Below are positions 1 through 38,585 of a DNA stretch of 38,585 bases, in pieces. The stretch is from the IMG/VR virus record IMGVR_UViG_3300045988_036717; one strand, given 5' to 3'. How positions within the stretch are numbered: the first letter of the stretch is position 1; each line of letters opens with the position of its first letter. The DNA comes from a virus. The translations under genes were made by a program, and so were the position numbers. The notes below the pieces were generated by a model. The model searched no databases. It was given only the letters and a program-made list of their open reading frames with translations, and was not told the DNA's origin.

Positions 1-55
1 GCTCAGTCCAATAACTTGGTATCTATCTTCAACTTCTTTAGGAACGTAAGCAACC
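1..55. repeat. Terminal overlap: bases 1-55 are identical to 38531-38585 (circular closure of the contig)
   Basis: Both ends read gctcagtccaataacttggtatctatcttcaacttctttaggaacgtaagcaacc. A minus-strand ORF reads in frame through the junction. Confidence 0.95.
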
Positions 56-336
56 GTTACTGTCATGTTGTACATCAACGCCAAGTGGTGCTCACAATGG
101 CTAAATACATTTTTTACTTCTTTGACGACCAAAGCATCAGATGGAACTGTAAATTTCTTATCATACATGTTCGCAATTTCTGCATTAGTGTAGTTGTTTC
201 CTTCCAAAAGTTCTTTCCAGTATTTCACAACCCTTCTAGGTGTCTCAATTAGTCCTTCTCTGTTTACATCTTCTCCAAAACTTTCAACAAGAAGTCGGAC
301 AGCTTTCTCACATTTTTCTTCATCAAATTTATTCAT
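1..336 (-). CDS. folE: GTP cyclohydrolase I (FolE), N-terminal 112 codons; continues at 38530 after circular closure
   Basis: ATG at 336-334 preceded by an AAGAGGAG SD. My translation is MNKFDEEKCEKAVRLLVESFGEDVNREGLIETPRRVVKYWKELL...VFSHCEHHLALM...RYQVIGLS, which carries the ETPxRV and CEHH motifs typical of FolE. Confidence 0.9.
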   Translation of the reverse strand, partial: MNKFDEEKCEKAVRLLVESFGEDVNREGLIETPRRVVKYWKELLEGNNYTNAEIANMYDKKFTVPSDALVVKEVKNVFSHCEHHLALMYNMTVTVAYVPKEVEDRYQVIGLS

Positions 337-337
337 G

Positions 338-991
338 TCATACTCCTCTTTTCTGCGGGTCCCAAATAACTTTATGCAACTGTATCTGTACTCTATATTT
401 CTCGGTATCTAAACCGTCGTTATGTAGTTCTTTAAGGAAGCTGACTAAGTTTCTTGCATCACACTTACCGAATATTGGTGATAGATATACGTAGCATTTT
501 GGCCTGTATGTCATGAGCAGATTTTTCACATACGGAAAATCAATTTCTGAGCATACAATCTTTAGACAGTCACTTTCCTTGAGAAGACATAAGTTTTCAT
601 ATTTCATATGTCCGTGCATTATACTTGTTGGTGTCTTCCAGTCCATCGTAATTGTAAGCCCTTGTGCTATATCAGACGGTACACTAATAGAGCCATTTGT
701 CTCAAGATTTACGTGAAATCCTTCATCAATCAATTTTTTAAGAAGGATCATTGAATTTTCTTGAAATAGTGGTTCACCACCAGTTAACGTAATACGCCTA
801 TTGCCTAATTTGTGACACTTTTTGATAATATCATCAATATCCATTTCGTTTCCTTCATTAAAAGCGTATGCGGTGTCACAATACGAACATCTCAAGTTAC
901 AACCTGTCAATCTTATAAATGTTGCAAGGGCACCAGTTGTAATCCCCTCACCGTCAATACTAGAAAAGATCTCATTTACTTTCATCTTCAT
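338..991 (-). CDS. queE: 7-carboxy-7-deazaguanine synthase (QueE, radical SAM)
   Basis: MKMKVNEIFSSIDGEGITTG...FIRLTGCNLRCSYCDT has the CX3CX2C radical-SAM cluster in a QueE-type N-terminus. I trimmed the ORF-track start to ATG 991. The TGA stop lies 1 nt before the folE ATG. Confidence 0.9.
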   Translation of the reverse strand: MKMKVNEIFSSIDGEGITTGALATFIRLTGCNLRCSYCDTAYAFNEGNEMDIDDIIKKCHKLGNRRITLTGGEPLFQENSMILLKKLIDEGFHVNLETNGSISVPSDIAQGLTITMDWKTPTSIMHGHMKYENLCLLKESDCLKIVCSEIDFPYVKNLLMTYRPKCYVYLSPIFGKCDARNLVSFLKELHNDGLDTEKYRVQIQLHKVIWDPQKRGV

Positions 992-1316
992 AAATAGCAA
1001 TGTTCCCCTCACTTTCTTGGACAGATACCTTGTAACACTTATCACCAATTTCATCGTGAATCCATTTAGCCATATTTTCTGCTGTAGGATTTATTTCTCC
1101 AATGATGTTGTTAATATATTGGTGGTCTAGCTTGTTGTGGATTCTTTTTTTAATTTCAGTGAAGTCCATAACCATTCCATTATGATCTAGTTCTTCGCTT
1201 TTTAGATATATTGTGACAATCCAATTGTGACCGTGAATATTTGAGCACTTGCTTTCATAGTCCAATTTAAGATTATGAGCTCCTGCAATTTCCATTCGCT
1301 TACTTACGTAATACAT
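972..1316 (-). CDS. queD: 6-carboxy-5,6,7,8-tetrahydropterin synthase (QueD)
   Basis: MYYVSKRMEIAGAHNL...CSNIHGHNW carries the QueD/PTPS zinc motif. ATG 1316 has an AAGGAGG SD at 7-nt spacing. The track start 1346 is a TTG. Confidence 0.9.
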   Translation of the reverse strand: MYYVSKRMEIAGAHNLKLDYESKCSNIHGHNWIVTIYLKSEELDHNGMVMDFTEIKKRIHNKLDHQYINNIIGEINPTAENMAKWIHDEIGDKCYKVSVQESEGNIAIYEDESK

Positions 1317-1329
1317 TTTCTTTTCCTCC

Positions 1330-1860
1330 TTATTCTTCGTATTCAACTGGGTCTTTTACCCCGTTTGCTTCAAACGCTTTCTTTCTATCAATGCAAGTTC
1401 CGCATTTTCCACACTGTTTTTCTCCGCCTTCATAGCATGACCATGTAAGATCATAAGGAGTTCCTAATTCAAGACCCAATTTTACTACGCCCGTTTTGTT
1501 TAGCTCAACCAATGGAGCGACGACATGAACAAGCCCATAAGTCCCAATATTGATAGCTTTACCCATCGTGTCGGTAAACTCTTTGCTACAATCTGCATAA
1601 GCATTTCCAGCTGAGTCATCCGCATGTGCTCCTAGATATATTTCACATTCTTCATCTTCATATAGTGATTGAGCTAGACTTGCAACCGTGCTAAGAATAA
1701 GCCCATTTCTGAAAGGAACGTAAGTTTCAACCTTTCCTTCTCCGTTTTTGGCAATTTGCTCGGCATATGATTCATGCTTTATTTCTTTTGTAGATCGTTC
1801 CAGTAACGAGCAGTTTGAATACTGCATGATACTTGATAAGTCAAATTCATAATGTTTCAA
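1330..1860 (-). CDS. queC: QueC-like (7-cyano-7-deazaguanine synthase) C-terminal fragment, 5'-truncated; possibly a pseudogene
   Basis: It retains VPFRNGLIL and the C-terminal zinc cluster CYEGGEKQCGKCGTCIDR. It begins at about residue 55 of canonical QueC, so the SGGxDS PP-loop is absent. The listed start is a TTG with no SD, and a TAA lies 4 codons upstream in frame. Confidence 0.75.
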   Translation of the reverse strand: MKHYEFDLSSIMQYSNCSLLERSTKEIKHESYAEQIAKNGEGKVETYVPFRNGLILSTVASLAQSLYEDEECEIYLGAHADDSAGNAYADCSKEFTDTMGKAINIGTYGLVHVVAPLVELNKTGVVKLGLELGTPYDLTWSCYEGGEKQCGKCGTCIDRKKAFEANGVKDPVEYEE

Positions 1861-2569
1861 TCTTTTGAAACTTTAACCATTCTTCAATATTGTGATGATT
1901 ACCTTCTATGTAGTTCCTTATCCTTTGGTCCTTATGTCTTATACTTTTCAATGTGCCATCTTGAAACATGTATAACGTTCCAAATTTTGAACCGCTTAGC
2001 CATGGTGTGCTATCCACTGAATAAAAATGGTATCTTTTTAACGCTTTCAGATTTGTAAATCCAAGTCCATGAACTTTGCATCCATTTTCTTTTGCTATGC
2101 TTAACATTGGGCTAAAATATTTGTACTCCTTGCGTTTTATTTCTTTAGTCACAATTCCACCGATCGCAACATAATCATACTCTTTAGTTAGCTTGCGCCA
2201 TTCCTCAAGTCCTCTTGATTTGTGCCAAACTGGAATACACTTTTTTCCAGTCCCTTTTTCAAGCACTGTCCGCATTTCTTTTACTTTTTCATGCCCTACG
2301 ATACTGTCTATATCAAGTTCAAAGAAATACTTTATATCATACTTGTTTATGAAATTTATGTAGTCCTTTAGATACTGATTGAAATCTATTTTTCCTTTGT
2401 TACTGTTCATGAACGTAAACGCCCCGCTATCAAGCAAGAACATTTTGCATTCCTTGATATACGGAATCTGCCACTCTTTTATTGAGTAAAAGCTTTCTAA
2501 GATATAATCATTTTTGTGTTCTTCTACAACATATTTATGTGCATACGTACCAGCCATGAATATCTTCAT
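1847..2569 (-). CDS. dpdA: DpdA-like DNA-guanine transglycosylase (TGT paralogue)
   Basis: MKIFMAGTY...FLLDSGAFTF (a DSGxF motif like the TGT DSGGF) ...VHGLGFTN. It sits inside a folE/queD/queE/queC cluster. ATG 2569 has an AAGGAG SD. The track N-terminal extension overlaps the ParB-like gene and was rejected. Confidence 0.7.
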   Translation of the reverse strand: MKIFMAGTYAHKYVVEEHKNDYILESFYSIKEWQIPYIKECKMFLLDSGAFTFMNSNKGKIDFNQYLKDYINFINKYDIKYFFELDIDSIVGHEKVKEMRTVLEKGTGKKCIPVWHKSRGLEEWRKLTKEYDYVAIGGIVTKEIKRKEYKYFSPMLSIAKENGCKVHGLGFTNLKALKRYHFYSVDSTPWLSGSKFGTLYMFQDGTLKSIRHKDQRIRNYIEGNHHNIEEWLKFQKIETL

Positions 2570-2573
2570 GCCC

Positions 2574-3059
2574 CTACTCCTTGATGAACTGCTTGTGACA
2601 GTAAGGACATGTGATAGTATCTGTTTCTTTCTCCTCTTTCTTTGACTCTTCCGCTTCGGTGAAGAAGTCATCGAGATTTACTTCCTCGTTATCTGGAAAT
2701 CCAAGTTCTGACATATCAATGTCAATGTTGTCTAACTCCTCGCTAAGAATATCCATGTTGAATCCAGTGTTCATTGTGGTTTGATTGTGGACAAGCGTAT
2801 ATGCTCTTCTTTGTTCGTCTGTAAGATCATCTAAACGAATAACTGGAACTTCTTTCATACCTAATTCCTTGCAAGCCTGTAACCGTCCATGACCTTCAAC
2901 AATTAGATTGTCTTTTCCCCAGATGCCAATAGGGTCATTCATGCCGAATTCCCGAATTGAATTTTTAATTTGCTCAATCTGTTCAGGTGTGTGAATCTTT
3001 GCATTCTTTTCGTATACTTTTAGCTGCTCAATAGGAATGTGATCTACTTTTAACTTCAT
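2574..3059 (-). CDS. ParB/Srx N-terminal-domain protein with C-terminal CxxCH knuckle (DpdB-like candidate)
   Basis: IPIEQLKVYEKNAKIHTPEQIEQIKNSIREFGMNDPIGIW...VEGHGRLQACKELGMKEVPVIRLDDLTDEQRRAY is a ParB-like nuclease-domain signature. It is followed by an acidic linker and ITCPYCHKQF. The SD is GGAGGAGG. Confidence 0.75.
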   Translation of the reverse strand: MKLKVDHIPIEQLKVYEKNAKIHTPEQIEQIKNSIREFGMNDPIGIWGKDNLIVEGHGRLQACKELGMKEVPVIRLDDLTDEQRRAYTLVHNQTTMNTGFNMDILSEELDNIDIDMSELGFPDNEEVNLDDFFTEAEESKKEEKETDTITCPYCHKQFIKE

Positions 3060-3085
3060 TGAATTGTTCCTCCTCCATTCTGAAA

Positions 3086-3101
3086 TGTTCCACGTGGAAC
3101 A
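3086..3101. promoter_or_regulatory. parS-like 16-bp perfect palindrome TGTTCCACGTGGAACA
   Basis: It matches the Firmicute parS consensus TGTTNCACGTGAAACA at 15 of 16 positions. It lies 27 nt upstream of the ParB-like ATG. Confidence 0.6.
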
Positions 3102-3116
3102 CTTTTCGCTTTTTTT

Positions 3117-3131
3117 GTTTCTTTTTGAAAC
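3117..3131 (-). promoter_or_regulatory. GTTTC-N5-GAAAC motif copy (perfect arms)
   Basis: The plus strand reads gtttctttttgaaac. It lies in the leader of the ParB/DpdA operon. Confidence 0.6.
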
Positions 3132-3151
3132 AGAAAAACGGCTATATTCAC

Positions 3152-3181
3152 ATTATAATGCAAAATTTACCGTTTTTCCAA
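3152..3181 (-). promoter_or_regulatory. Predicted sigma-70-type promoter for the deazaguanine operon
   Basis: The minus strand reads TTGGAA (3181-3176), an 18-nt spacer, then TATAAT (3157-3152). Confidence 0.5.
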
Positions 3182-3270
3182 AAAATCATGAGATTTTATT
3201 AATTTTGTGTATTTACTTATGGATGTTACATCTTGGTGTCACACCAGACAATGCCCGTTACCCTCGGGGG

Positions 3271-3651
3271 TTACTTCAGCTTCTCGATTCTATGCATAGC
3301 TAGCTTCTTTAGATATTCTTTTTCAATCATACCTGCATCAGCTAACCTGTGACAGCTTTTGCATAAGCATATAAGGTTATCATCATTCAACCATAGCTCT
3401 GGCTTATCCTTCAGCTTCTCTATGTGATGCACTTCTATGTTACGGTAGTTATATATGCCTTTGTCTTTGCATACTTCACATAGATAGTTTGCATCCTCTC
3501 TGATCTGTTTGCTCTTCTCTGTCCATGCACTCTTGCTTCTCAGCCTTGACTCTTTGTAGCTGTACTTGTAGTGTTTCTTTTCTACATGGCATACATAACC
3601 TTTCGGATGTATCTTTCCACATCTGCTACAAGCATAGTACCCTTGTGCCAT
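3271..3651 (-). CDS. HNH endonuclease (packaging-associated type)
   Basis: CEVCKDKG...IEVHHIEKL...NLICLCKSCH is an HNH/zinc-finger motif. The start overlaps the endolysin stop (TAATG). Confidence 0.85.
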   Translation of the reverse strand: MAQGYYACSRCGKIHPKGYVCHVEKKHYKYSYKESRLRSKSAWTEKSKQIREDANYLCEVCKDKGIYNYRNIEVHHIEKLKDKPELWLNDDNLICLCKSCHRLADAGMIEKEYLKKLAMHRIEKLK

Positions 3652-4724
3652 TACTTAACTCTCAGCTTTTGTCCTGCATAAATGATGTTCGGATTGCTGA
3701 TGCCATTCATAGCCTGTAGCTTCTGCCATGTTGTGCCATATCTGGATGCAATACCTGACAATGTATCACCACTTCGTACAGTGTAATATACTGCCTGAGA
3801 TGCACCTAGCTTCTGGTTGACGATATTCTGAATGGTATTATAGTCATACCCTGCCTGTTCCAGTCTGTTCTTACGGCTGTTACCGTCTCCCCACTGTCCA
3901 GCAATTACCTCGCTTGCAATCTGTTCATTTGACTTTCTGACAGGTGTAACCTTCTTGTTTACAATGTCCTGAATCACATTGTAGTCATATCCTGCTTGTG
4001 TAAGTCTATTCTTGCGATCTTCGCCATTTCCCCAAGCTCCTGCAATAACCTCATCTGCAATCTGCTCATTGCTTTTTTTAACAGGTGTTGGTGTAACTGG
4101 TTTTGTTTCACCGTTTGGATTTGCGTACTTGCGCCATGCTGTAGCATCCATATAGGCAATGTCTAAGTCAAGGTTGCCAGCATATCCTGCCAGTCTTCCA
4201 CAACTTGAATACTGCCTGATAGCACATGTATAATAGCCCTCATTCCATGGATGTTCCTGATATCCTGTCGGATTATTATTCGCATATTGTGCAATCCATA
4301 GTCCATAGTCTCCAATGCCAGAGACTTCGTTATACAAACTTGCTGATGCATAGATTAAAGGTTTAACCCCAGTTTTTTCTACAATTCGATTGCACCAGTC
4401 ACTGATCCATGTTCTAGCTTGACCACCTGTTCCGCACAGTGCATTGCTCTGCCACTCCCAGTCTAAACAAAGAATAGCTTCGCCGATATATCCTTGAATG
4501 TTGCTCAAGAAATAATCTGCTTCTGCTACTGCATTCCCACCATTTGCATAGTGATATACGCCTAATAGCTTTCCATTTGCTTTTGCCTGCTGATAGGCTC
4601 TGTCACAGTCTGGATTCACATAGTATGTACCTTCTGTAGCTTTACAAATTACAAAGTCACATGGTACAACACTTAAATTAATTCCTGCCTGATAGTTTGA
4701 AATATCAATTCCGTTTAATGTCAT
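3651..4724 (-). CDS. Endolysin: GH25 muramidase + 2x CW_7 repeats + LysM
   Basis: [17 protein letters not shown]...ICKATEG...CLDWEW indicates GH25. Two copies of SNEQIA.EVIAG.WG.G..RKNRL.QAGYDYN.IQ.IVN indicate CW_7. C-terminal [28 protein letters not shown] indicates LysM. I trimmed the start to ATG 4724 (AGAGAGGA SD). Confidence 0.9.
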
Positions 4725-4737
4725 TTTTTTGTCCTCT

Positions 4738-5094
4738 CTAATGATTCTGTGCCCGTTCATTTTCCAGCTCCTTGATTCTTGCTTCGTGATCATCCTTGTA
4801 CTTAAACAGTGTTTTTACACGCTCCGAAACAAGAACGAGCTGTTCTGATACTTTTTTTAGTTGTTCAGTCTTTTCACCATTTTCTGCCATCATCTTTTTT
4901 GTTGTGTCACAAAAATCGTCCAGTTTCACATTGATTTTCACAAAATTTTTTTCGACATCCAACTGCCGAGTCTTTTCTCGCTCTGCCTGTTCTTCCTGAC
5001 GCTTTTTGCCACCTGCAAAGGTGTTGATTAACGTACATGCCAGTGATGTCAAGGAAATAAGTAATGCGATGCTTACGCTTGCTTCAGGAGTCAT
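4738..5094 (-). CDS. Membrane-anchored coiled-coil protein in the lysis cassette (holin accessory?)
   Basis: It has an N-terminal hydrophobic helix ([24 protein letters not shown]) followed by a charged coiled-coil region. It lies between the holin and the endolysin. Confidence 0.5.
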
Positions 5095-5298
5095 TTATTC
5101 CACCTTTTTATAGTTTGCTGAGCTAATTTGTAGACATGCTCCAATACATGTACCAACTGCCGAAATAGTTCCTGCAATCGCTTCTGCATAATCCCATCCC
5201 CAAATTTTGCCGAGCGTGATAATTAATGCTGAAAATGCGTTCGTTCCAACAAGTGCAACCCATTTAAGTTTGTCATATGTTTTATTAGAAAATACCAT
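5095..5298 (-). CDS. Holin (Dp-1-like family)
   Basis: MVFSNKTYDKLKWVALVGTNAFSALIITLGKIWGW...AVGTCIGACLQIS has the TYDxLKW N-terminus and two TM segments. ATG 5298 has a GAAGG SD. The track start 5319 has no SD. Confidence 0.7.
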   Translation of the reverse strand: MVFSNKTYDKLKWVALVGTNAFSALIITLGKIWGWDYAEAIAGTISAVGTCIGACLQISSANYKKVE

Positions 5299-18138: not shown

Positions 18139-18480
18139 ATGATTAACAATAAAGCAATAGGAAGGAAACTCAAAGAACTGCGCAACTCCCGTGATCTTAA
18201 ACAGTCTGAGCTTGCTGAACTTGTCGGACTTTCAAGACCTGCAATATCGAATATTGAGTCTGGAAAACGTTCCTTGACTCTTTCAACTCTGAAACGTTTT
18301 TGCGAGGTTTACGGAATTGATATATCTTACTTTGGAATTGATACGTCAAGCTATGATGAAACTACAGACCTCACACTGCGCATCGAGTCTCTGTTTCACG
18401 ATCTTCCTGAACCTGAGAAGGATGAACTGTATCTGAAGATAATGAAACTGTACCTAGACAGCAAGAATGTTTCTGATTGA
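18139..18480 (+). CDS. CI-like XRE-family repressor (no S24 peptidase domain)
   Basis: IGRKLKELRNSRDLKQSELAELVGLSRPAISNIESGKRSLTLSTLKRF. It is 113 aa and lies adjacent to the integrase. Confidence 0.85.
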   Translation: MINNKAIGRKLKELRNSRDLKQSELAELVGLSRPAISNIESGKRSLTLSTLKRFCEVYGIDISYFGIDTSSYDETTDLTLRIESLFHDLPEPEKDELYLKIMKLYLDSKNVSD

Positions 18481-18483: not shown

Positions 18484-18654
18484 CATCTGTCGAAAAAAAA
18501 GAATTGTCTAATTCATACTCGATTTTAAGATTTTCTTGTTCGGCATACAGATTAAACAACAACGAATATAATTTTTCTGCGTCCATATTTTCACCGCCTC
18601 TCATCGGCTAGTATGGACTGCTTTTTTTATTTTCAAACAAACGGAGGTATTTTT

Positions 18655-19989
18655 ATGAGAAAAAATCTGCGAGTGGCAGGATACGCTCGTGTTTCCACTG
18701 ATGAACAAAAGAAATATGGATATTCAATACAGGCCCAGACTGAAGAAATAACGCAATGGTGCAACGACAACGATCATGACCTGCAACATATCTACATTGA
18801 CGAAGGATTCTCAGCAAGCACCATGAAACGCCCACAGCTGCAATCCATGCTTTCAAACCTGAAAAATCTTGATGCCATAGCTTTCACACGCCTTGACCGT
18901 CTGTCACGTAACGTCCTTGAAGCTAACAAGATGTTAGAACTTCTTCAACAAAACAATGTCGCCATGATTTCCATATGCGAGGACGATATAAATACATCAA
19001 CTGCAAACGGCTTGTTTATGTTCAACCTTAAAGTCAACCTTGCGGAGCATGAATTAAAAAAAGGCTCTGAACGCATTAAAGCCGTATTTGAGTACAAGAT
19101 TGCACAAGGACAACCTATCACTGGCAACGTTCCTTTTGGCTACAGGATTGCCACAGAAAACGGAAATAAACGCATTGTAATTGATGAATCAAAGGCACCA
19201 ATCGTGAAAGACATTTTCGCATCATTTCTACTGCATCAATCAGTCCATTACACTGTAGAATACGTCAACCAGAAATACGGACTGTCTCGACCGTATATGT
19301 CCTACATGCACATATTAAAGAATGAATTTTATGCAGGATCATACCGTGGAAACGCCAATTACGCTGAACCATACATCACGAAAGAAACATACAATGCCGT
19401 TCAGACAGCTTTACAAGCCAATATACGCACAGGAATACAACGACATGTATATTTATTCACTGGACTTTTAAGATGCCCAGAATGTCGCTCTAAATTGGTT
19501 GGAGTGAGCCATCCAAAAGGCGGCAAGCGATATTATTATTACCGATGCAACAATGCACACTCGGTGCATACATGCTCCCACAAAAAGCATTATGCAGAAC
19601 TTGCAACGGAAAAATATCTGCTTTCTAATCTTGATACGCTGCTTAAAGATCATATAGCCACAATATCAAGCATCACGTCTGAAACAAAAGACACAACCGA
19701 AAAGGAATTAAAAGAATTAAGAAAAGAGCTTGATAATCTGAATTATATATTCATCAAGAAGCGCATGCCTGTAAGTACCTATGAACGTCTTTATGCGGAA
19801 ACGGAAGACAAAATAAAAAGGCTTGAATCTTTCAAACCTCAAAGCACGGACCATCTTAACCAATTTTTAAGCAGCGGTTGGCGCTCAATATATGATAATC
19901 TAACACGTGAGAACAAACGCACCCTATGGCGCAATGTTCTTGATTCTGTCCATGTTTCACCTGATGGAATAGAAGTTTTCTTCAAGTAA
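18655..19989 (+). CDS. int: Large serine recombinase (integrase)
   Basis: MRKNLRVAGYARVSTDEQKKYGYSIQAQ is a resolvase catalytic N-terminus. It is followed by a recombinase domain, a zinc ribbon (CPECRSKL...YYRC) and a coiled-coil C-terminus. The SD is GGAGG. Confidence 0.9.
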   Translation: MRKNLRVAGYARVSTDEQKKYGYSIQAQTEEITQWCNDNDHDLQHIYIDEGFSASTMKRPQLQSMLSNLKNLDAIAFTRLDRLSRNVLEANKMLELLQQNNVAMISICEDDINTSTANGLFMFNLKVNLAEHELKKGSERIKAVFEYKIAQGQPITGNVPFGYRIATENGNKRIVIDESKAPIVKDIFASFLLHQSVHYTVEYVNQKYGLSRPYMSYMHILKNEFYAGSYRGNANYAEPYITKETYNAVQTALQANIRTGIQRHVYLFTGLLRCPECRSKLVGVSHPKGGKRYYYYRCNNAHSVHTCSHKKHYAELATEKYLLSNLDTLLKDHIATISSITSETKDTTEKELKELRKELDNLNYIFIKKRMPVSTYERLYAETEDKIKRLESFKPQSTDHLNQFLSSGWRSIYDNLTRENKRTLWRNVLDSVHVSPDGIEVFFK

Positions 19990-34163: not shown

Positions 34164-34933
34164 TTTTTTGCCCCTCCGTCATTCTTTAATGAACTAATAA
34201 TATTCTCGTATGCCGAATAATCAAGCACACGATCCTCGACAGACTTTTTAGTCTGTTTTGGTCTTTTTAGTGTATCTGGCACATGCTTATAATTTCTAAA
34301 CAAGTCTGTTGCACATGCCTGTACATCCTTCACTGTTTCAAGTGCATTCACATTGAAATAATTCCCGATGTACATATCATCATCTGCATTACCGCTGAAC
34401 CACGTTTCGTTGTTCACCAGCTCTGCGATTTTTTCTGCTGTGATTCCTTCTTTTGCCTTTGCTTCATACATTGGCAACATCGTTCCGCTTTCAATCAGAT
34501 TGAGTGTGTCAATGTCATGTTGTAGCTCGTTAGCATTTCCATATGCAAACGTCATTGGCTTGTGAATCATCAGCACAGAATTTTTGTAAATGTTAATATC
34601 GTCTGCAACCATGGCAAGATATGTAGCGGCACTTGCACACAATCCATCAATGTACGCATGAATCTTTGCTCCGCTATTCTGTCTGAATCTTTTCAACATG
34701 CTGACCATTGCGGAACTTGCAAACACTGAGCCACCGCCTGAGTTGATGTAGATATTAAAATCTGTCACACCGTTCAAGCTGTCAATCTCTGCCTTAAATG
34801 CGTTTGTGTCAACTGCTGTTTCTGATTTCTCACCAGTCCACCAGTCCTTCGTGTTCTCATCAACAATATCGCCATAAACATAAAAATCAGCGCTTGTTTT
34901 CGTCAGATTCTTCAAGTACTTGTAATTCATCAT
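34160..34933 (-). CDS. ClpP-family prohead protease
   Basis: INSGGGSVFASSAMVSMLKRF...IDGLCASAATYLAMVADD...VLMIHKP. The start is probably the ATG pair at 34933/34930 (AGGGGG SD). Confidence 0.85.
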   Translation of the reverse strand: MMNYKYLKNLTKTSADFYVYGDIVDENTKDWWTGEKSETAVDTNAFKAEIDSLNGVTDFNIYINSGGGSVFASSAMVSMLKRFRQNSGAKIHAYIDGLCASAATYLAMVADDINIYKNSVLMIHKPMTFAYGNANELQHDIDTLNLIESGTMLPMYEAKAKEGITAEKIAELVNNETWFSGNADDDMYIGNYFNVNALETVKDVQACATDLFRNYKHVPDTLKRPKQTKKSVEDRVLDYSAYENIISSLKNDGGAKK

Positions 34934-36152
34934 CTGCCCCCTGTTCAGTTTCTTCAACTTTCTCAGCCGTTTCTTCTTCTTCATTTCCACCTGTCACCTG
35001 TCCGGTGTTTGGAGTGTAATACGTTCCGGTTTCAATATCATACAGAACTGCTCCAAGTCCAACATTGATCACGTCCATACCCTCAATGTAATTGAGATTT
35101 TCCATACGGCGCAATTCGTTTATCGTCATAAGTCCTGTATCTTTTGCAACCTTGTAAGCATCGAATCTCTCTTTGATGCTTGCCTTCACAATTTCTTTCG
35201 TATCAAATTCAAAGAAGAAGTTTTTCTTTTCTTTTTCTAACAGCAACGTGCTGTTTAGCGCTGTCTCAAATGCTTTAATAATCGGATATATCGCTTCCTT
35301 AAATGTCAGATTGAAATCACTATGAATGTGGAAAACTCCATTGATTTCATCCTGTAATGTTTTCTTCGACTCATTCAACTGCATTTCAACAGAACTGTTT
35401 GACGACTCCTGAAACTTGATGCCGTTATTCAAGACCATGACGGACTCGGTGTTGTTGGCATATAACCTTTTCCATGCTTCTTTCAGCTTGTCGATTTCTT
35501 CCTGTCCTAAACGTCTTTCGGCTTGTAAGAATCCTTTTTTATTACCACCTGTCTGAACCAGTCCAAGCTGATACACCAACGTACTGTATGCCGTTTCAAG
35601 TGCTTTTGAAATTTCTTCCGTCAATCCCTTTCCGCTTGCTCCGTCTTTGGTATTTCTCAAGAGTTTTACCATGTTCCACGGATAGATTTTATCCGTGCCA
35701 ACATAGAACTGTACGAAGCGATTCATCGGGTCGGAATTTGACCACACAGTGACATTTATATCTGGAATATATTTCAGTGCTGTTACGTTGTTCTGTCTGT
35801 CTATCTGGATGTAACAATATCCACCTTTGCCGAGTAAATAATCCTCGACCATGGCCTTTTTTGTCTGAAACCCGTCAAGCGTGTTTCCTGTGTCACCGTT
35901 CAACATTCGTACACGGCTGTCATTCTGCACTTCCTCAACTTTGCCTTTCTTGTACTTGTAAAGTTTAACAGGCATTGCAGCAATCGACCCACTGATAAAA
36001 TCAACAGCGCCTGATACGGCAGGAAGCGTGAGTGCCTTTTCCCTCGTGATTGTCTCATTATTGAGCAATGCCGATAACAGCACATCGTCAAGCTGAACAC
36101 TTTGATCGTTAAGATTTATTTTATTCTTAAATATTTTTTTGAATAGTGCCAC
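34887..36152 (-). CDS. Portal protein (HK97 family)
   Basis: The call rests on position and size. The probable start is GTG 36152 (VALFKKIF, GGGTGG SD). The track extension to 36215 covers a promoter-like region. Confidence 0.8.
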   Translation of the reverse strand: MALFKKIFKNKINLNDQSVQLDDVLLSALLNNETITREKALTLPAVSGAVDFISGSIAAMPVKLYKYKKGKVEEVQNDSRVRMLNGDTGNTLDGFQTKKAMVEDYLLGKGGYCYIQIDRQNNVTALKYIPDINVTVWSNSDPMNRFVQFYVGTDKIYPWNMVKLLRNTKDGASGKGLTEEISKALETAYSTLVYQLGLVQTGGNKKGFLQAERRLGQEEIDKLKEAWKRLYANNTESVMVLNNGIKFQESSNSSVEMQLNESKKTLQDEINGVFHIHSDFNLTFKEAIYPIIKAFETALNSTLLLEKEKKNFFFEFDTKEIVKASIKERFDAYKVAKDTGLMTINELRRMENLNYIEGMDVINVGLGAVLYDIETGTYYTPNTGQVTGGNEEEETAEKVEETEQGADDELQVLEESDENKR

Positions 36153-36176
36153 TCTCGTTACCACCCTTTTATAGTA

Positions 36177-36191
36177 TTTTCTATTTGAAAC
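36177..36191 (-). promoter_or_regulatory. GTTTC-N5-GAAAC motif copy (one arm mismatch) upstream of the portal gene
   Basis: The plus strand reads ttttctatttgaaac. It lies 14 nt downstream of a predicted -10. Confidence 0.45.
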
Positions 36192-36205
36192 ATTTTTACG
36201 CAAAT

Positions 36206-36234
36206 AATATAGCATAAATGTACGTTTTTATCAA
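36206..36234 (-). promoter_or_regulatory. Promoter-like element between terL and portal
   Basis: The minus strand reads TTGATA (36234-36229), a 17-nt spacer, then TATATT (36211-36206). Confidence 0.4.
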
Positions 36235-37938
36235 TTAAATCATCTGGAATGTGAAGTCACCTTCATTCAAGAAATAATCCTGCTCAAGAAGGTAAATTGC
36301 ATTGATAAGTGATACCACCATATCAACTTTTCCATTGCTCTTTTTCTTGCTAACGTACATGTTTTTGTTAGTATCATATGCACATTTTGCATTTTGAAAA
36401 TTGATTTCAAGAAGCTTGTTTTCTGTGTATTTGAATTTCTGCTTAAGTATTGCTTCTTTCATCCTCTTTGTCGGAGAATGTAGCACGCTTGAATACTGCT
36501 TGATTTGAACCGTGTTATAGCCCTCATTAGCCAATTTCTGCGCTGTGCTTAATGCATTCCACCTATCATAGCCAATAGCCTGAATTTGCACGTTATAATG
36601 GCTCTCAACGCTCAAGATTAATTGCTCAACAAACGCATATGAGATAACTCTGTCACCACATGCAAACACCTTCCCGCTCTTCAGCAATTCCTGATAGTTC
36701 ACGCGTTCTGATATTGTCTTTTCCGTGATCCTGTCTGCTGGAATGAACGCAAAACTTTCTGCAAGAATGTTATCATCATCATCTACAGAAACCATGGCAA
36801 CAGATGTATTATCGTTCGATTCTGAAAGGTCAACGCCTAAATATACGACTCTGCCGTTCCAATCAATATTCGCAACCTTGCATGCTTGAACATCCTTAAC
36901 GTCAATAAATGTTTCAGTTCCTTGCCCTTGATAAATGATATTGCAGTGCTTTGTAACAAAGTTTTCGCGCTCGTTCTCAATGGCAATGGCTCTGGCTCTT
37001 TTCTTTACAAGATCATCCCAAATTTCAGGGATTTCAAGCGCCGCCGGATTAGCCTGCTTCAAAATAAGATCGTCTGTTTCCCAATCGGAAGTTTTGTCAG
37101 GTTCATATAAAAGCGCAAAAACAGTATCGTCTTTCTCGATACCGTCCAGAACCTTCTTGGCATACGCAACCTCGTCCTCGAAAGGATTGTCGATTGTCGG
37201 ATATTTTGTGCTGATGATAAAACCTAATTTGTTTACAACGTTCAACTGCCCTGATCTCATCGCTTCGACAGGATAACCGTTTGGCAATGCTCCAACCTCA
37301 TCTGCAATGAATGCATTCGGCATACGTCCATCCATACGGTTGTTACTGTATGCTAACGGAATCAATGTGTTTTCATTCGGCTTGAACTTAATGTAATCCC
37401 TTAACAGCTTAAAACGCTTCGTTCCTTTGTACTCATATAACAGCGGACTGCTTTTGATTGTATCTGAGATTGCTTCTTTTATCTCTCTCGACAATGCACC
37501 ATCTGGAGCAACTGAAAAGAACTTTGAGAACCGAGGTTCTGTCAAAAACAAGATAATAAAGATTGTGGCGACCGTGTACGTCTTGAAATTCTTTCTGCAT
37601 ATTTCCAGAAGTCCAGTCTCATATCTGCGCTTTTTCGGCTTGTCACGATATACAGTACATAACATGGCTGTATAAAATAGCCATTGATAGCCAGTGGCAC
37701 ACTTATACATCGACTGTCCTGCTTTCAATCCTTTCGGCATGTTAAGCAGTTTCAGAATGTTTTCAATCTGCTTTACCTTTTTTTCAGATACGAAGTACTT
37801 TGAATCTTTTCCTTCTACGATCCTCATCCAGTCTCGCATCTGCTTTTTGACGTATCTCGGAGTGTCTTTCTTTCTGACTGAACTTTTGCAACATTCGTAA
37901 GCCTTACTGCTCGTCGCTGCCATCATCGTCACCGCCAT
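36235..37938 (-). CDS. terL: Terminase large subunit
   Basis: 567 aa, positioned after terS and before the portal gene. The sequence is consistent with a terminase ATPase/nuclease architecture (VYLGVDLSESND). Confidence 0.85.
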   Translation of the reverse strand: MAVTMMAATSSKAYECCKSSVRKKDTPRYVKKQMRDWMRIVEGKDSKYFVSEKKVKQIENILKLLNMPKGLKAGQSMYKCATGYQWLFYTAMLCTVYRDKPKKRRYETGLLEICRKNFKTYTVATIFIILFLTEPRFSKFFSVAPDGALSREIKEAISDTIKSSPLLYEYKGTKRFKLLRDYIKFKPNENTLIPLAYSNNRMDGRMPNAFIADEVGALPNGYPVEAMRSGQLNVVNKLGFIISTKYPTIDNPFEDEVAYAKKVLDGIEKDDTVFALLYEPDKTSDWETDDLILKQANPAALEIPEIWDDLVKKRARAIAIENERENFVTKHCNIIYQGQGTETFIDVKDVQACKVANIDWNGRVVYLGVDLSESNDNTSVAMVSVDDDDNILAESFAFIPADRITEKTISERVNYQELLKSGKVFACGDRVISYAFVEQLILSVESHYNVQIQAIGYDRWNALSTAQKLANEGYNTVQIKQYSSVLHSPTKRMKEAILKQKFKYTENKLLEINFQNAKCAYDTNKNMYVSKKKSNGKVDMVVSLINAIYLLEQDYFLNEGDFTFQMI

Positions 37939-38281
37939 TAATGATCTTCATAAGCGGGTCTGCATCCTGTTCTCCTGCATCGTCAACGCCAAAGTTACGC
38001 AAAATACGCATCAATGTTGCAACTGTTTTGTTTGCGCTGTCTGTTGTCCTGTTGTAGTCACTTATTGCAGGATTTGTATACAAATTCTTCCTGTTCTTGA
38101 CGTATTCTTTTGTTACCAATGCGCCTTCTGCTTTTATCGTCTTTTCAAGCTCTGTTAAGATATTCAACTGTACCTGATAACGCTTGAATGTCGTAATGAA
38201 GAAAAAATTAGATTGGACACCACTTTCTTCGGCAATACGAATAATCTCTTGTGCCTGTTCATTTAATGATAGTTTTGTCAC
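37904..38281 (-). CDS. terS: Terminase small subunit (P27-like family)
   Basis: TKLSLNEQAQEIIRIAEESG...FKRYQVQLNILTELEKTIKAEGALV...NPAISDYNRT. The start is a GTG with an AAGGTGA SD. Confidence 0.75.
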   Translation of the reverse strand: MTKLSLNEQAQEIIRIAEESGVQSNFFFITTFKRYQVQLNILTELEKTIKAEGALVTKEYVKNRKNLYTNPAISDYNRTTDSANKTVATLMRILRNFGVDDAGEQDADPLMKIINGGDDDGSDEQ

Positions 38282-38585
38282 CTATTTCACCTTCATTTCT
38301 ACTTCTTTTCTTAGGTCACTGTTTGTCTTAAACAGACCCGTTAGATTGGTTACATCAGTAAATCCGTCACTCTTAGCCCATCTTGCACTCACACAAGCAT
38401 GGTCTGCTTTGATATTAACATAGACGCTTTCGCTACCTGTTGCCATCGAAAGACATTCAGAAATATCCTGTGCTAGTCTTTCCTGTAGCTGTAATCTTTT
38501 GGCACACAAATTCACAATTCTAGGAATCTTGCTCAGTCCAATAACTTGGTATCTATCTTCAACTTCTTTAGGAACGTAAGCAACC
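38282..38585 (-). CDS. folE: GTP cyclohydrolase I (FolE), C-terminal part (joins 1-336 across the circular junction)
   Basis: ...GLSKIPRIVNLCAKRLQLQERLAQDISECL...VNIKADHACVSAR is a FolE C-terminal signature. The frame is continuous with 336-1, giving 194 aa in total. The stop is a TAG at 38282. Confidence 0.9.
   Translation of the reverse strand, partial: VAYVPKEVEDRYQVIGLSKIPRIVNLCAKRLQLQERLAQDISECLSMATGSESVYVNIKADHACVSARWAKSDGFTDVTNLTGLFKTNSDLRKEVEMKVK
38531..38585. repeat. Second copy of the 55-bp terminal overlap
   Basis: Identical to bases 1-55. Confidence 0.95.

Follow-up and report, generated by a model that had tools for sequence, protein, structure and literature searches.

The IMG/VR virus record IMGVR_UViG_3300045988_036717, a stretch of 38,585 nucleotides (the window) of human gut origin, carries a six-gene cassette for modification of DNA with 7-deazaguanines. 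The cassette lies on the minus strand between an HNH endonuclease gene and the small terminase gene (terS). It is a genuine phage 7-deazaguanine system of known type, and the copy in this genome is damaged. The first 55 bases of the window are identical to the last 55 (bases 38531-38585 copy bases 1-55), which indicates a circular assembly of 38,530 bp with a 55-bp overlap. Because the two ends are identical, the last gene of the cassette, folE, is not interrupted where the window begins and ends.

All six open reading frames (ORFs) were found where the preliminary description had placed them, from position 3059 down to 1 and on to 38282, and Pfam, NCBIfam and PHROG scans identify the genes as the cassette type it had named, FolE, QueD, QueE and QueC plus DpdA. 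The order on the minus strand is a ParB_N-like gene (2574-3059; Pfam ParB_N 2.9e-7, TIGR00180 5e-10, PHROG 620 5e-50), dpdA (1847-2569; PHROG 887, "queuine tRNA-ribosyltransferase", 1e-57, and tblastn matches to phage DpdAs), a queC remnant (1330-1860; Pfam QueC, profile positions 54-209 of 210), queD (972-1316), queE (338-991), and folE, whose N-terminal part (1-336) runs on over the circular junction to join its C-terminal part (38282-38530). ORF coordinates bear out the tight coupling claimed for these genes. Four nucleotides separate the ParB_N stop from the dpdA ATG, the dpdA and queC-remnant ORFs overlap by 14 nt, and 13 nt, with an AGGAGG among them, lie between the queC stop and the queD ATG; queD and queE overlap, and 1 nt separates the queE stop from the folE ATG. 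Once the circular ends are joined, the terS GTG at 38281 follows the folE stop with no nucleotide between them, also as described. Because the genes run into terS without a gap, cassette and packaging genes are most likely co-transcribed.

DpdA is the presumed transglycosylase of the cassette. The product of 1847-2569 had been called DpdA-like, with structure prediction proposed as the check. An AlphaFold2 model built from a 40-sequence alignment (pLDDT 89.8, pTM 0.87) recovered the tRNA-guanine transglycosylase (TGT) fold: each of the 28 best fold matches in PDB was a TGT (probability 1.0, TMq 0.60-0.68), and matches in a viral fold library were to models of phage queuine tRNA-ribosyltransferases or DpdAs (TMq up to 0.83, E down to 4e-23). 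By tblastn, with 94-97% query coverage, the protein matched phages 9g (1e-7), Iggy (8e-11), and BcepGomr (2e-10); 7-deazaguanine DNA has been measured in 9g and Iggy (PMC6884629, PMC10484667). The protein thus models confidently as a TGT fold and is assigned to the phage DpdAs, which are DNA-guanine transglycosylases. Profile methods say less about it. Pfam gave no match, and the NCBIfam model of bacterial DpdA matched weakly and partially (20 bits against a 200-bit cut-off, residues 130-188 on profile positions 198-257). When PDB sequences were searched with a profile made from the DpdA alignment, no TGT or DpdA came up, and fold comparison alone reached the TGTs. Candidates for the catalytic aspartates (general acid/base and nucleophile) are D47 (in DSGAF), D86/D88, and D186 (in DSTxW), which are invariant in the 40-sequence alignment. 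Among metagenome proteins the DpdA clade has 4,446 homologues at E < 1e-5. Nearly all of the matches listed are 242 aa long and have no Pfam domain, and the nine lineages examined are phage contigs plus one isolated Fusobacterium phage.

Homologues of this protein are labeled "queuine tRNA-ribosyltransferase" in databases, and the precursor pathway is common to queuosine synthesis. Both points would fit a different function, in which the genes are auxiliary metabolic genes for queuosine in host tRNA and do not modify DNA. We regard this as very improbable. The 240-aa protein is of the compact phage DpdA type and is homologous to DpdAs of phages with 7-deazaguanine DNA, it is always paired with a DNA-binding ParB_N protein, and no queA, queG, queH, or queF was found in the window. 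Every alternative cargo at the same locus in relatives is a DNA-modifying module (methylase, TET-associated glycosyltransferases, or PAPS-reductase with ParB_N).

Three of the four precursor enzymes are intact. QueD scores above the TIGR03367 cut-off (96.6 vs 89.25) and has the CxxxHGH signature as CSNIHGH. DpdL, a decarboxylase paralogue, does not have the cysteine of this signature (PMC10516641), and since the only QueD-like gene in the window keeps it, a dDG product made by a DpdL-type decarboxylase was considered and judged unlikely. QueE (Pfam Radical_SAM and Fer4_12) has its CxxxCxxC cluster as CNLRCSYC, and its best NCBIfam model is the Clostridial-type TIGR03963, matched end to end (4e-64) at 216 bits, below the 260-bit cut-off. 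FolE is 194 aa long (NF006826 174.7 vs a cut-off of 162; Pfam 8.4e-48). A search of the window agreed with the earlier statement that queF, an amidotransferase-QueC fusion, and other tailoring genes are absent; QueF, Gat-QueC, QueT, and Vut_1 transporters were not found there. An Rfam scan of the whole window gave nothing, and hence the leader of the cassette has no preQ1 riboswitch. Outside the phage family, the closest full-length QueC (73% identity) is on a human fecal contig (L004, MT839169) that looks bacterial; it lies in a queC-queD-queE-folE operon followed by two genes without phage hallmarks. This similarity suggests that the precursor genes were acquired from a gut bacterium.

The third gene had been recognized as a QueC fragment. 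It is truly a fragment, but it is not a design feature of the cassette: comparison with sibling phages identifies it as the scar of a deletion. Four IMG/VR siblings (L006, L007, L008, and L009) have the same cassette, with DpdAs 83-96% identical to that of the window. In these siblings, QueC is an intact protein of 231 aa that starts MKALVLSSGGVDSTT, including the PP-loop SGGVDS, and DpdA ends in YAEKYL. Alignment of the window to them shows that 194 bp have been deleted, with the scar at 1861-1862, where CAAAAG is joined to ATTGAAAC. The deleted segment held the 3' end of dpdA (its final six codons plus stop), the translation start of queC (GGAGG ribosome-binding site and ATG), and QueC codons 1-55, which include the ATP-binding PP-loop. 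The deletion is out of frame, and dpdA now reads on into queC sequence. As a result the DpdA of the window has 240 aa, against 242 aa in the family-typical form ending ...KFQKYAEKYL; its last six family residues, YAEKYL, are replaced by IETL (...KFQKIETL). Among the lost residues are Y237 and A238, each with at least 90% conservation across the 40-sequence alignment. What remains of QueC is equivalent to codons 56-231. Its own Shine-Dalgarno sequence and ATG are gone, with only a TTG inside the 3' end of dpdA in their place. The SGGxDS motif is missing from the window QueC, and a search for a second copy showed that residues 1-55 are not encoded elsewhere in the window. The C-terminal zinc-binding cysteine cluster is retained (WSCYEGGEKQCGKCGTC).

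The same junction occurs in three loci from other assemblies (L117, L118, and L119). The 240-aa DpdA with the same remnant is present on a circle of 38,649 bp that is 100% identical to the window, and, with a single mismatch, on contigs of run ERR636409 (human gut metagenome). An assembly artefact was considered as the source of the deletion, and the recurrence of the junction across assemblers argues against it. The junction appears to belong to essentially one strain.

Loss of parts of the cassette is not confined to this strain. Locus L042 has a double deletion and keeps ParB residues 1-88, QueC 35-176, QueD 1-23, and FolE 101-194 (locus positions 1-1160). In the protein database, P0018 is an in-frame fusion, produced by deletion, of DpdA residues 1-169 to the QueC C-terminus, joined at a shared "GL", and P0016 and P0021 are truncated DpdAs. 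Decay extends to other cargo at the same locus: L017 is a deletion derivative of a glycosyltransferase type and L036 of a PAPS-reductase type.

The place of the cassette in the genome was compared across 80 related IMG/VR loci retrieved by their large terminase (TerL), and those with TerL at least 92% identical were taken as close relatives. The preliminary description had presented the modification genes as an insertion between HNH and terS, and comparison with relatives that have no cassette had been proposed. In three distant relatives (L073, L084, and L087), terS directly follows HNH with gaps of 256-331 bp, which supports ancestral adjacency of the two genes. The cassette is therefore extra DNA, as proposed, but it is not a singular event. 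Close relatives, whose HNH proteins are 88-96% identical, always have 0.9-4.4 kb in the HNH-terS gap, and the content is variable; overall the gap ranges from 0.26 to 4.4 kb and holds at least five types of cargo. Among 45 close-relative loci, two TET-associated glycosyltransferases with ParB_N and UDP-galactopyranose mutase were found in 15 (e.g., L016, 2270-5834), and two PAPS-reductase-like proteins with ParB_N and a putative membrane protein in 14 (e.g., L014, 2297-6441). The 7-deazaguanine cassette is present on four contigs, in addition to the eroded L042. Three loci (e.g., L019, 6463-7650) have a fusion of ParB_N to an N6/N4 DNA methylase, and one locus has other cargo. More distant relatives carry ParB_N-DUF4417 with a glutamine amidase (e.g., L059, 3471-5196). 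A ParB_N protein accompanies every cargo type and is fused to the N6/N4 methylase in L019 and L078. The combination of glycosyltransferases and UDP-galactopyranose mutase hints at galactofuranosylated DNA bases. The PAPS-reductase-type cargo of L014 includes a 361-aa protein without a family match.

When the window is compared at the nucleotide level with relatives that have other cargo, homology extends to the right edge of a palindrome at 3086-3101, breaks off there, and resumes at the start of terS (37904-38281, minus strand), which forms the right border of the bay. Identity of terS to the window follows the cargo, at 89-99% for deazaguanine, 70-73% for PAPS-reductase, and about 66% for glycosyltransferase types, with TerL at 92-99% throughout. 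This covariation could be simple linkage, or terS could be adapted to differently modified DNA. Considering the deletion together with these comparisons, we think it likely that the cassette in this genome is a damaged, decaying 7-deazaguanine allele of a swappable DNA-modification bay.

ParB_N domains linked or fused to phage DNA-modifying enzymes have been described, and their function was stated to be unknown (PMC12783734). The ParB_N protein of the window has 161 aa and consists of a ParB_N domain only, followed by an acidic tail and a C-terminal CPYC; its motif E55-G-H-G-R59 (EGHGRLQA) fits the ParB-type GxxRxxA. Nine lineages with DpdAs of this clade were examined: the window's own family, Fusobacterium phage phiFN37, L010, L120, L121, L123, L154, L155, and L156. 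A full-length ParB_N homologue (32-54% identity) lies directly upstream of dpdA in all nine, and in most lineages the packaging genes follow closely after the pair. The CPxC tail is shared by the homologue in L154, the sole one whose C-terminus was read. Downstream of the pair, precursor supply is modular. The window's siblings have QueC-QueD-QueE-FolE, and L123 has an extra 123-aa gene between queC and queD, which was not found in the window; QueC with a Vut_1 transporter follows the pair in L120, L121, and L155, and the transporter alone, without QueC, in L154 and L156. Bacterial DpdA requires the ParB-like ATPase DpdB for preQ0 insertion (PMC10164549). By analogy, we infer that the ParB_N protein assists DpdA; it may work like DpdB, although it is not a member of the DpdB family.

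In the intact siblings, GTP would be converted to preQ0 by FolE, QueD, QueE, and QueC, and DpdA would swap guanine for preQ0 in duplex phage DNA after replication, with help from the ParB_N protein of the kind DpdB gives. The modification would shield packaged DNA from restriction. Because no tailoring enzyme is present, dPreQ0 is the predicted base in the siblings. The earlier prediction for the window was dPreQ0 or an earlier intermediate; the window's own route would end at 7-carboxy-7-deazaguanine (CDG). The phage cannot make preQ0 alone because the QueC start, ribosome-binding site, and PP-loop are deleted.

One possible consequence is that DpdA inserts CDG itself, giving dCDG-modified DNA. 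DpdA2 of Vibrio phage VH7D inserts CDG into DNA in E. coli ΔqueC, dCDG occurs naturally in a virus (PMC10516641), and FolE, QueD, and QueE are intact in the window. However, insertion of CDG by the VH7D enzyme is about 40-fold less efficient than that of its normal substrate, and the enzyme belongs to a different DpdA subfamily (PMC10516641). Because QueC is kept in the siblings, preQ0 is presumably the base to which this DpdA clade is tuned, and the deletion looks accidental, being out of frame and clipping dpdA too. A dCDG product therefore seems improbable to us.

Any residual modification would need preQ0 from the host, through host QueC or salvage, and a clipped DpdA that still works. We see about an even chance that modification is strongly reduced or lost in this genome, as expected of a decaying allele, because erosion recurs in other copies and dpdA is also clipped. 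The cassette may instead still work, with a host QueC or preQ0 pool completing or supplying the precursor, the clipped DpdA near-normal, and the deletion neutral. FolE, QueD, QueE, and most of DpdA are intact, the deletion variant is a complete circular genome, and phages that have only DpdA are thought to use host precursors (PMC6884629). L154 and L156, which carry ParB_N, DpdA, and the Vut_1 transporter without QueC, would be natural counterparts. Unlike those relatives, this genome lacks a transporter for the precursor. For phages with DpdA alone, Clostridium hosts have been reported to be without preQ0 genes (PMC6884629), the nearly invariant Y237 and A238 of DpdA are lost, and the more severely eroded copies elsewhere point to relaxed selection. 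We therefore find continued function doubtful, and less probable than loss or strong reduction of the modification.

Several points weigh against a decaying allele and the account of the bay given here. L154 and L156 indicate that DpdA can use precursor made elsewhere, and where the host produces preQ0 the deletion may do no harm. All contigs known to have the deletion are near-identical. The phage host is probably a member of Clostridia; a TerL search of GTDB species genomes gave no close prophage, and the best matches, in Eubacteriales metagenome-assembled genomes and Ruthenibacterium, are only 75% identical. The 9g-type phage DpdA1 is active in E. coli without a ParB partner (PMC6884629), and the role of ParB_N is drawn from analogy only. 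The position of the cos end, described below, is taken from relatives only.

The cargo is preceded by an intergenic leader of 211 nt (3060-3270). The preliminary description had given the cassette a promoter of its own, a sigma-70-like element TTGGAA-18-TATAAT on the minus strand at 3181-3152. The element is present, but it lies inside a conserved leader of about 200 nt that is common to all cargo types. Relatives of every cargo type conserve the two hexamers around a spacer that varies. The promoter call rests on this conservation because promoter-like matches are no commoner than in shuffled sequence (20 in positions 1-5200 vs 16.3). Parts of the leader, such as TTTTTTGGAAAAACG, are kept directly upstream of terS in cargo-free relatives. 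The cassette is thus better viewed as an allele at a polymorphic bay for DNA modification than as a singular insertion that has a promoter to itself. Flanking the -10 element (3150-3190, minus strand) is an 8-nt inverted repeat (AAAAACGG...CCGTTTTT), which is conserved in relatives. A T-rich motif, TTTTTTGGAAAAACGG, is conserved with the repeat and is kept even in cargo-free distant relatives. The repeat and the motif may be a binding site for a regulator or for TerS.

The HNH endonuclease gene (3271-3651, minus strand; Pfam HNH 8.5e-8) is the last gene before the probable cos end. In a relative, contig IMGVR_UViG_3300045988_044650, whose start is L012 and whose end is L138, an Illumina adapter is found at either end. 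The contig reads ...CAAGAT on the right and GGAAAGAACAC... on the left, and it does not have 12 nt that are present at this place in circular relatives. L045 and L042 start at the same homologous base. These ends suggest a cos site with a 12-nt 3' overhang, probably GTAACATCCATA on the minus strand at 3218-3229 of the window, 42-53 nt past the HNH stop; the left end of virion DNA would run from 3217 and the right end would be at 3230. With a cos end between them, virion DNA would have HNH at its right end and the cassette at its extreme left, and only in circles or concatemers would the two be neighbors.

A perfect 16-bp palindrome, TGTTCCACGTGGAACA, at 3086-3101 lies after the promoter-like element and before the first cargo gene, and marks where the variable cargo begins on the left. 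It fits the parS consensus tGTTnCACGTGnAACa, and one match was found in the window (at most 3 mismatches), against 0.07 expected. A published list of chromosomal parS sites gives this same sequence for P. putida and P. aeruginosa (PMC7022226). Among relatives, 23 loci, which span three cargo types, have an exact copy in the leader, and a 24th (L087) is elsewhere. The palindrome is absent from L019, L037, and L088; L029 and L008 have variants that still conform to the parS consensus. No window protein has a ParB helix-turn-helix domain, and no full-length ParB was identified in the window. The idea that parS travels with the ParB_N-DpdA pair was ruled out, as unrelated phages with the pair lack the palindrome.

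A speculative reading of the bay would connect these elements. A parS of host type would load the host ParB clamp; the ParB_N proteins of the cargo would use this platform, for example by pairing through their N-domains, to spread the modification enzyme (DpdA, glycosyltransferase, PAPS-reductase type, or methylase) along the genome, and terS would co-vary to recognize the modified DNA. We regard the scheme as improbable. If true, leader, parS, cargo, and terS would form a dedicated recombination-swappable bay for DNA hypermodification.

The genome is that of a temperate cos-packaging siphovirus of the human gut. It is considered temperate because it has a serine recombinase (18613-19989) and, on the opposite strand, an HTH repressor (18139-18480). 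Early genes include ERF and DnaD/DnaC-like genes, and the capsid genes are of HK97 type. The late region has the lambda-like order holin, lysin, HNH, cos, cargo, terS, terL. On the circular map, HNH, cos (inferred from a relative's adapter-capped contig ends), terS, and terL are in the order of an HNH-dependent cos packaging module. The earlier pairing of HNH with a P27-type terS holds for HNH; for the P27 type, the evidence is a sub-threshold Terminase_4 match (E 0.0015) together with gene position. On the minus strand beyond terS lie terL (36235-37938), in which TerL domains were confirmed, and the portal gene (34887-36215). The terL of the window is uninterrupted. In some relatives the terL match is split, by an insert of about 0.63 kb in L038, L039, L040, and L044 (codons ~32/6) and by one of about 1.08 kb in L050, L060, L061, L065, and L066 (codons ~125/120), which suggests mobile introns or inteins.

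Among characterized phages, Escherichia phage CAjan and Mycobacterium phage Rosebush share this enzyme set and likewise lack a tailoring enzyme, and dPreQ0 was measured in their DNA (PMC6884629). The DpdA of the window shows full-length homology to the related enzyme of 9g; CAjan and Rosebush DpdAs are not among the matches listed, and the Rosebush QueC is about 40% identical to that of the window. In these two phages QueC is intact and hosts and genomic contexts are different, whereas the window, from a temperate gut phage, has a truncated QueC and a cassette flanked by the probable cos end and terS. Streptococcus phages Dp-1 and MS1 also have Firmicutes hosts and the same queC-queD-queE-folE order (followed by transporter-dpdA), with QueC 53-55% identical. 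Unlike the window, Dp-1 adds QueF and a transporter, and dPreQ1 was measured in it; its DpdA is longer (about 311 aa) and about 26% identical, and its cassette is at the genome start by the replication genes, without ParB_N. For DpdA, the closest isolated phage is Fusobacterium phage phiFN37, with 46% identity and a 44% identical ParB-like gene directly upstream. It differs in being an 85-kb phage that has a transporter for the precursor in place of de novo synthesis, and its DpdA is away from terS.

The bacterial Dpd system of Salmonella Montevideo likewise pairs a TGT-fold DNA transglycosylase, DpdA, with a ParB-superfamily protein, DpdB, whose ATPase activity is required (PMC10164549). DpdB is much larger and has two domains and a DGQQR motif, whereas the window protein has 161 aa, ParB_N only, and EGHGR; the second, C-terminal helical (SspE-like) domain of DpdB is missing from it. 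None of the bacterial restriction genes dpdC-K is present with the window cassette. ParB is not mentioned in two papers on phage DpdA (PMC6884629, PMC10516641), which do not discuss the pairing seen here in nine of nine lineages. Linkage or fusion of ParBc (PF02195) to phage DNA-modifying enzymes (PMC12783734) agrees with the ParB_N protein found here with every cargo. For the bay itself, the nearest parallel is in lactococcal 936-type phages, in which anti-restriction methylases have been acquired beside cos-phage terminase genes at an insertion hotspot (PMC4190342). There the cargo is single methylase genes between terS and terL, whereas the bay described here lies upstream of terS and swaps multi-gene hypermodification pathways.

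So far, the phage 7-deazaguanine systems that have been characterized come mainly from lytic phages that infect Proteobacteria, Actinobacteria, and a few other groups. The compact 242-aa DpdA clade to which the window's enzyme belongs is large and has no Pfam annotation. This genome also calls for caution in annotation: domain matches would score its cassette as complete, yet the QueC active site is lost, and finding FolE, QueD, QueE, and QueC with DpdA in an annotation does not guarantee modified DNA. The bay, the invariant ParB_N-DpdA pairing, and the parS at the bay border deserve attention, and the pairing hints, by analogy with bacterial DpdB, at how phage DpdAs may engage DNA. Phages of a single lineage (TerL at least 92% identical) swap entire modification chemistries at one locus, and decay is frequent. 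This is the pattern that would be expected if each modification pays only against particular host defenses.

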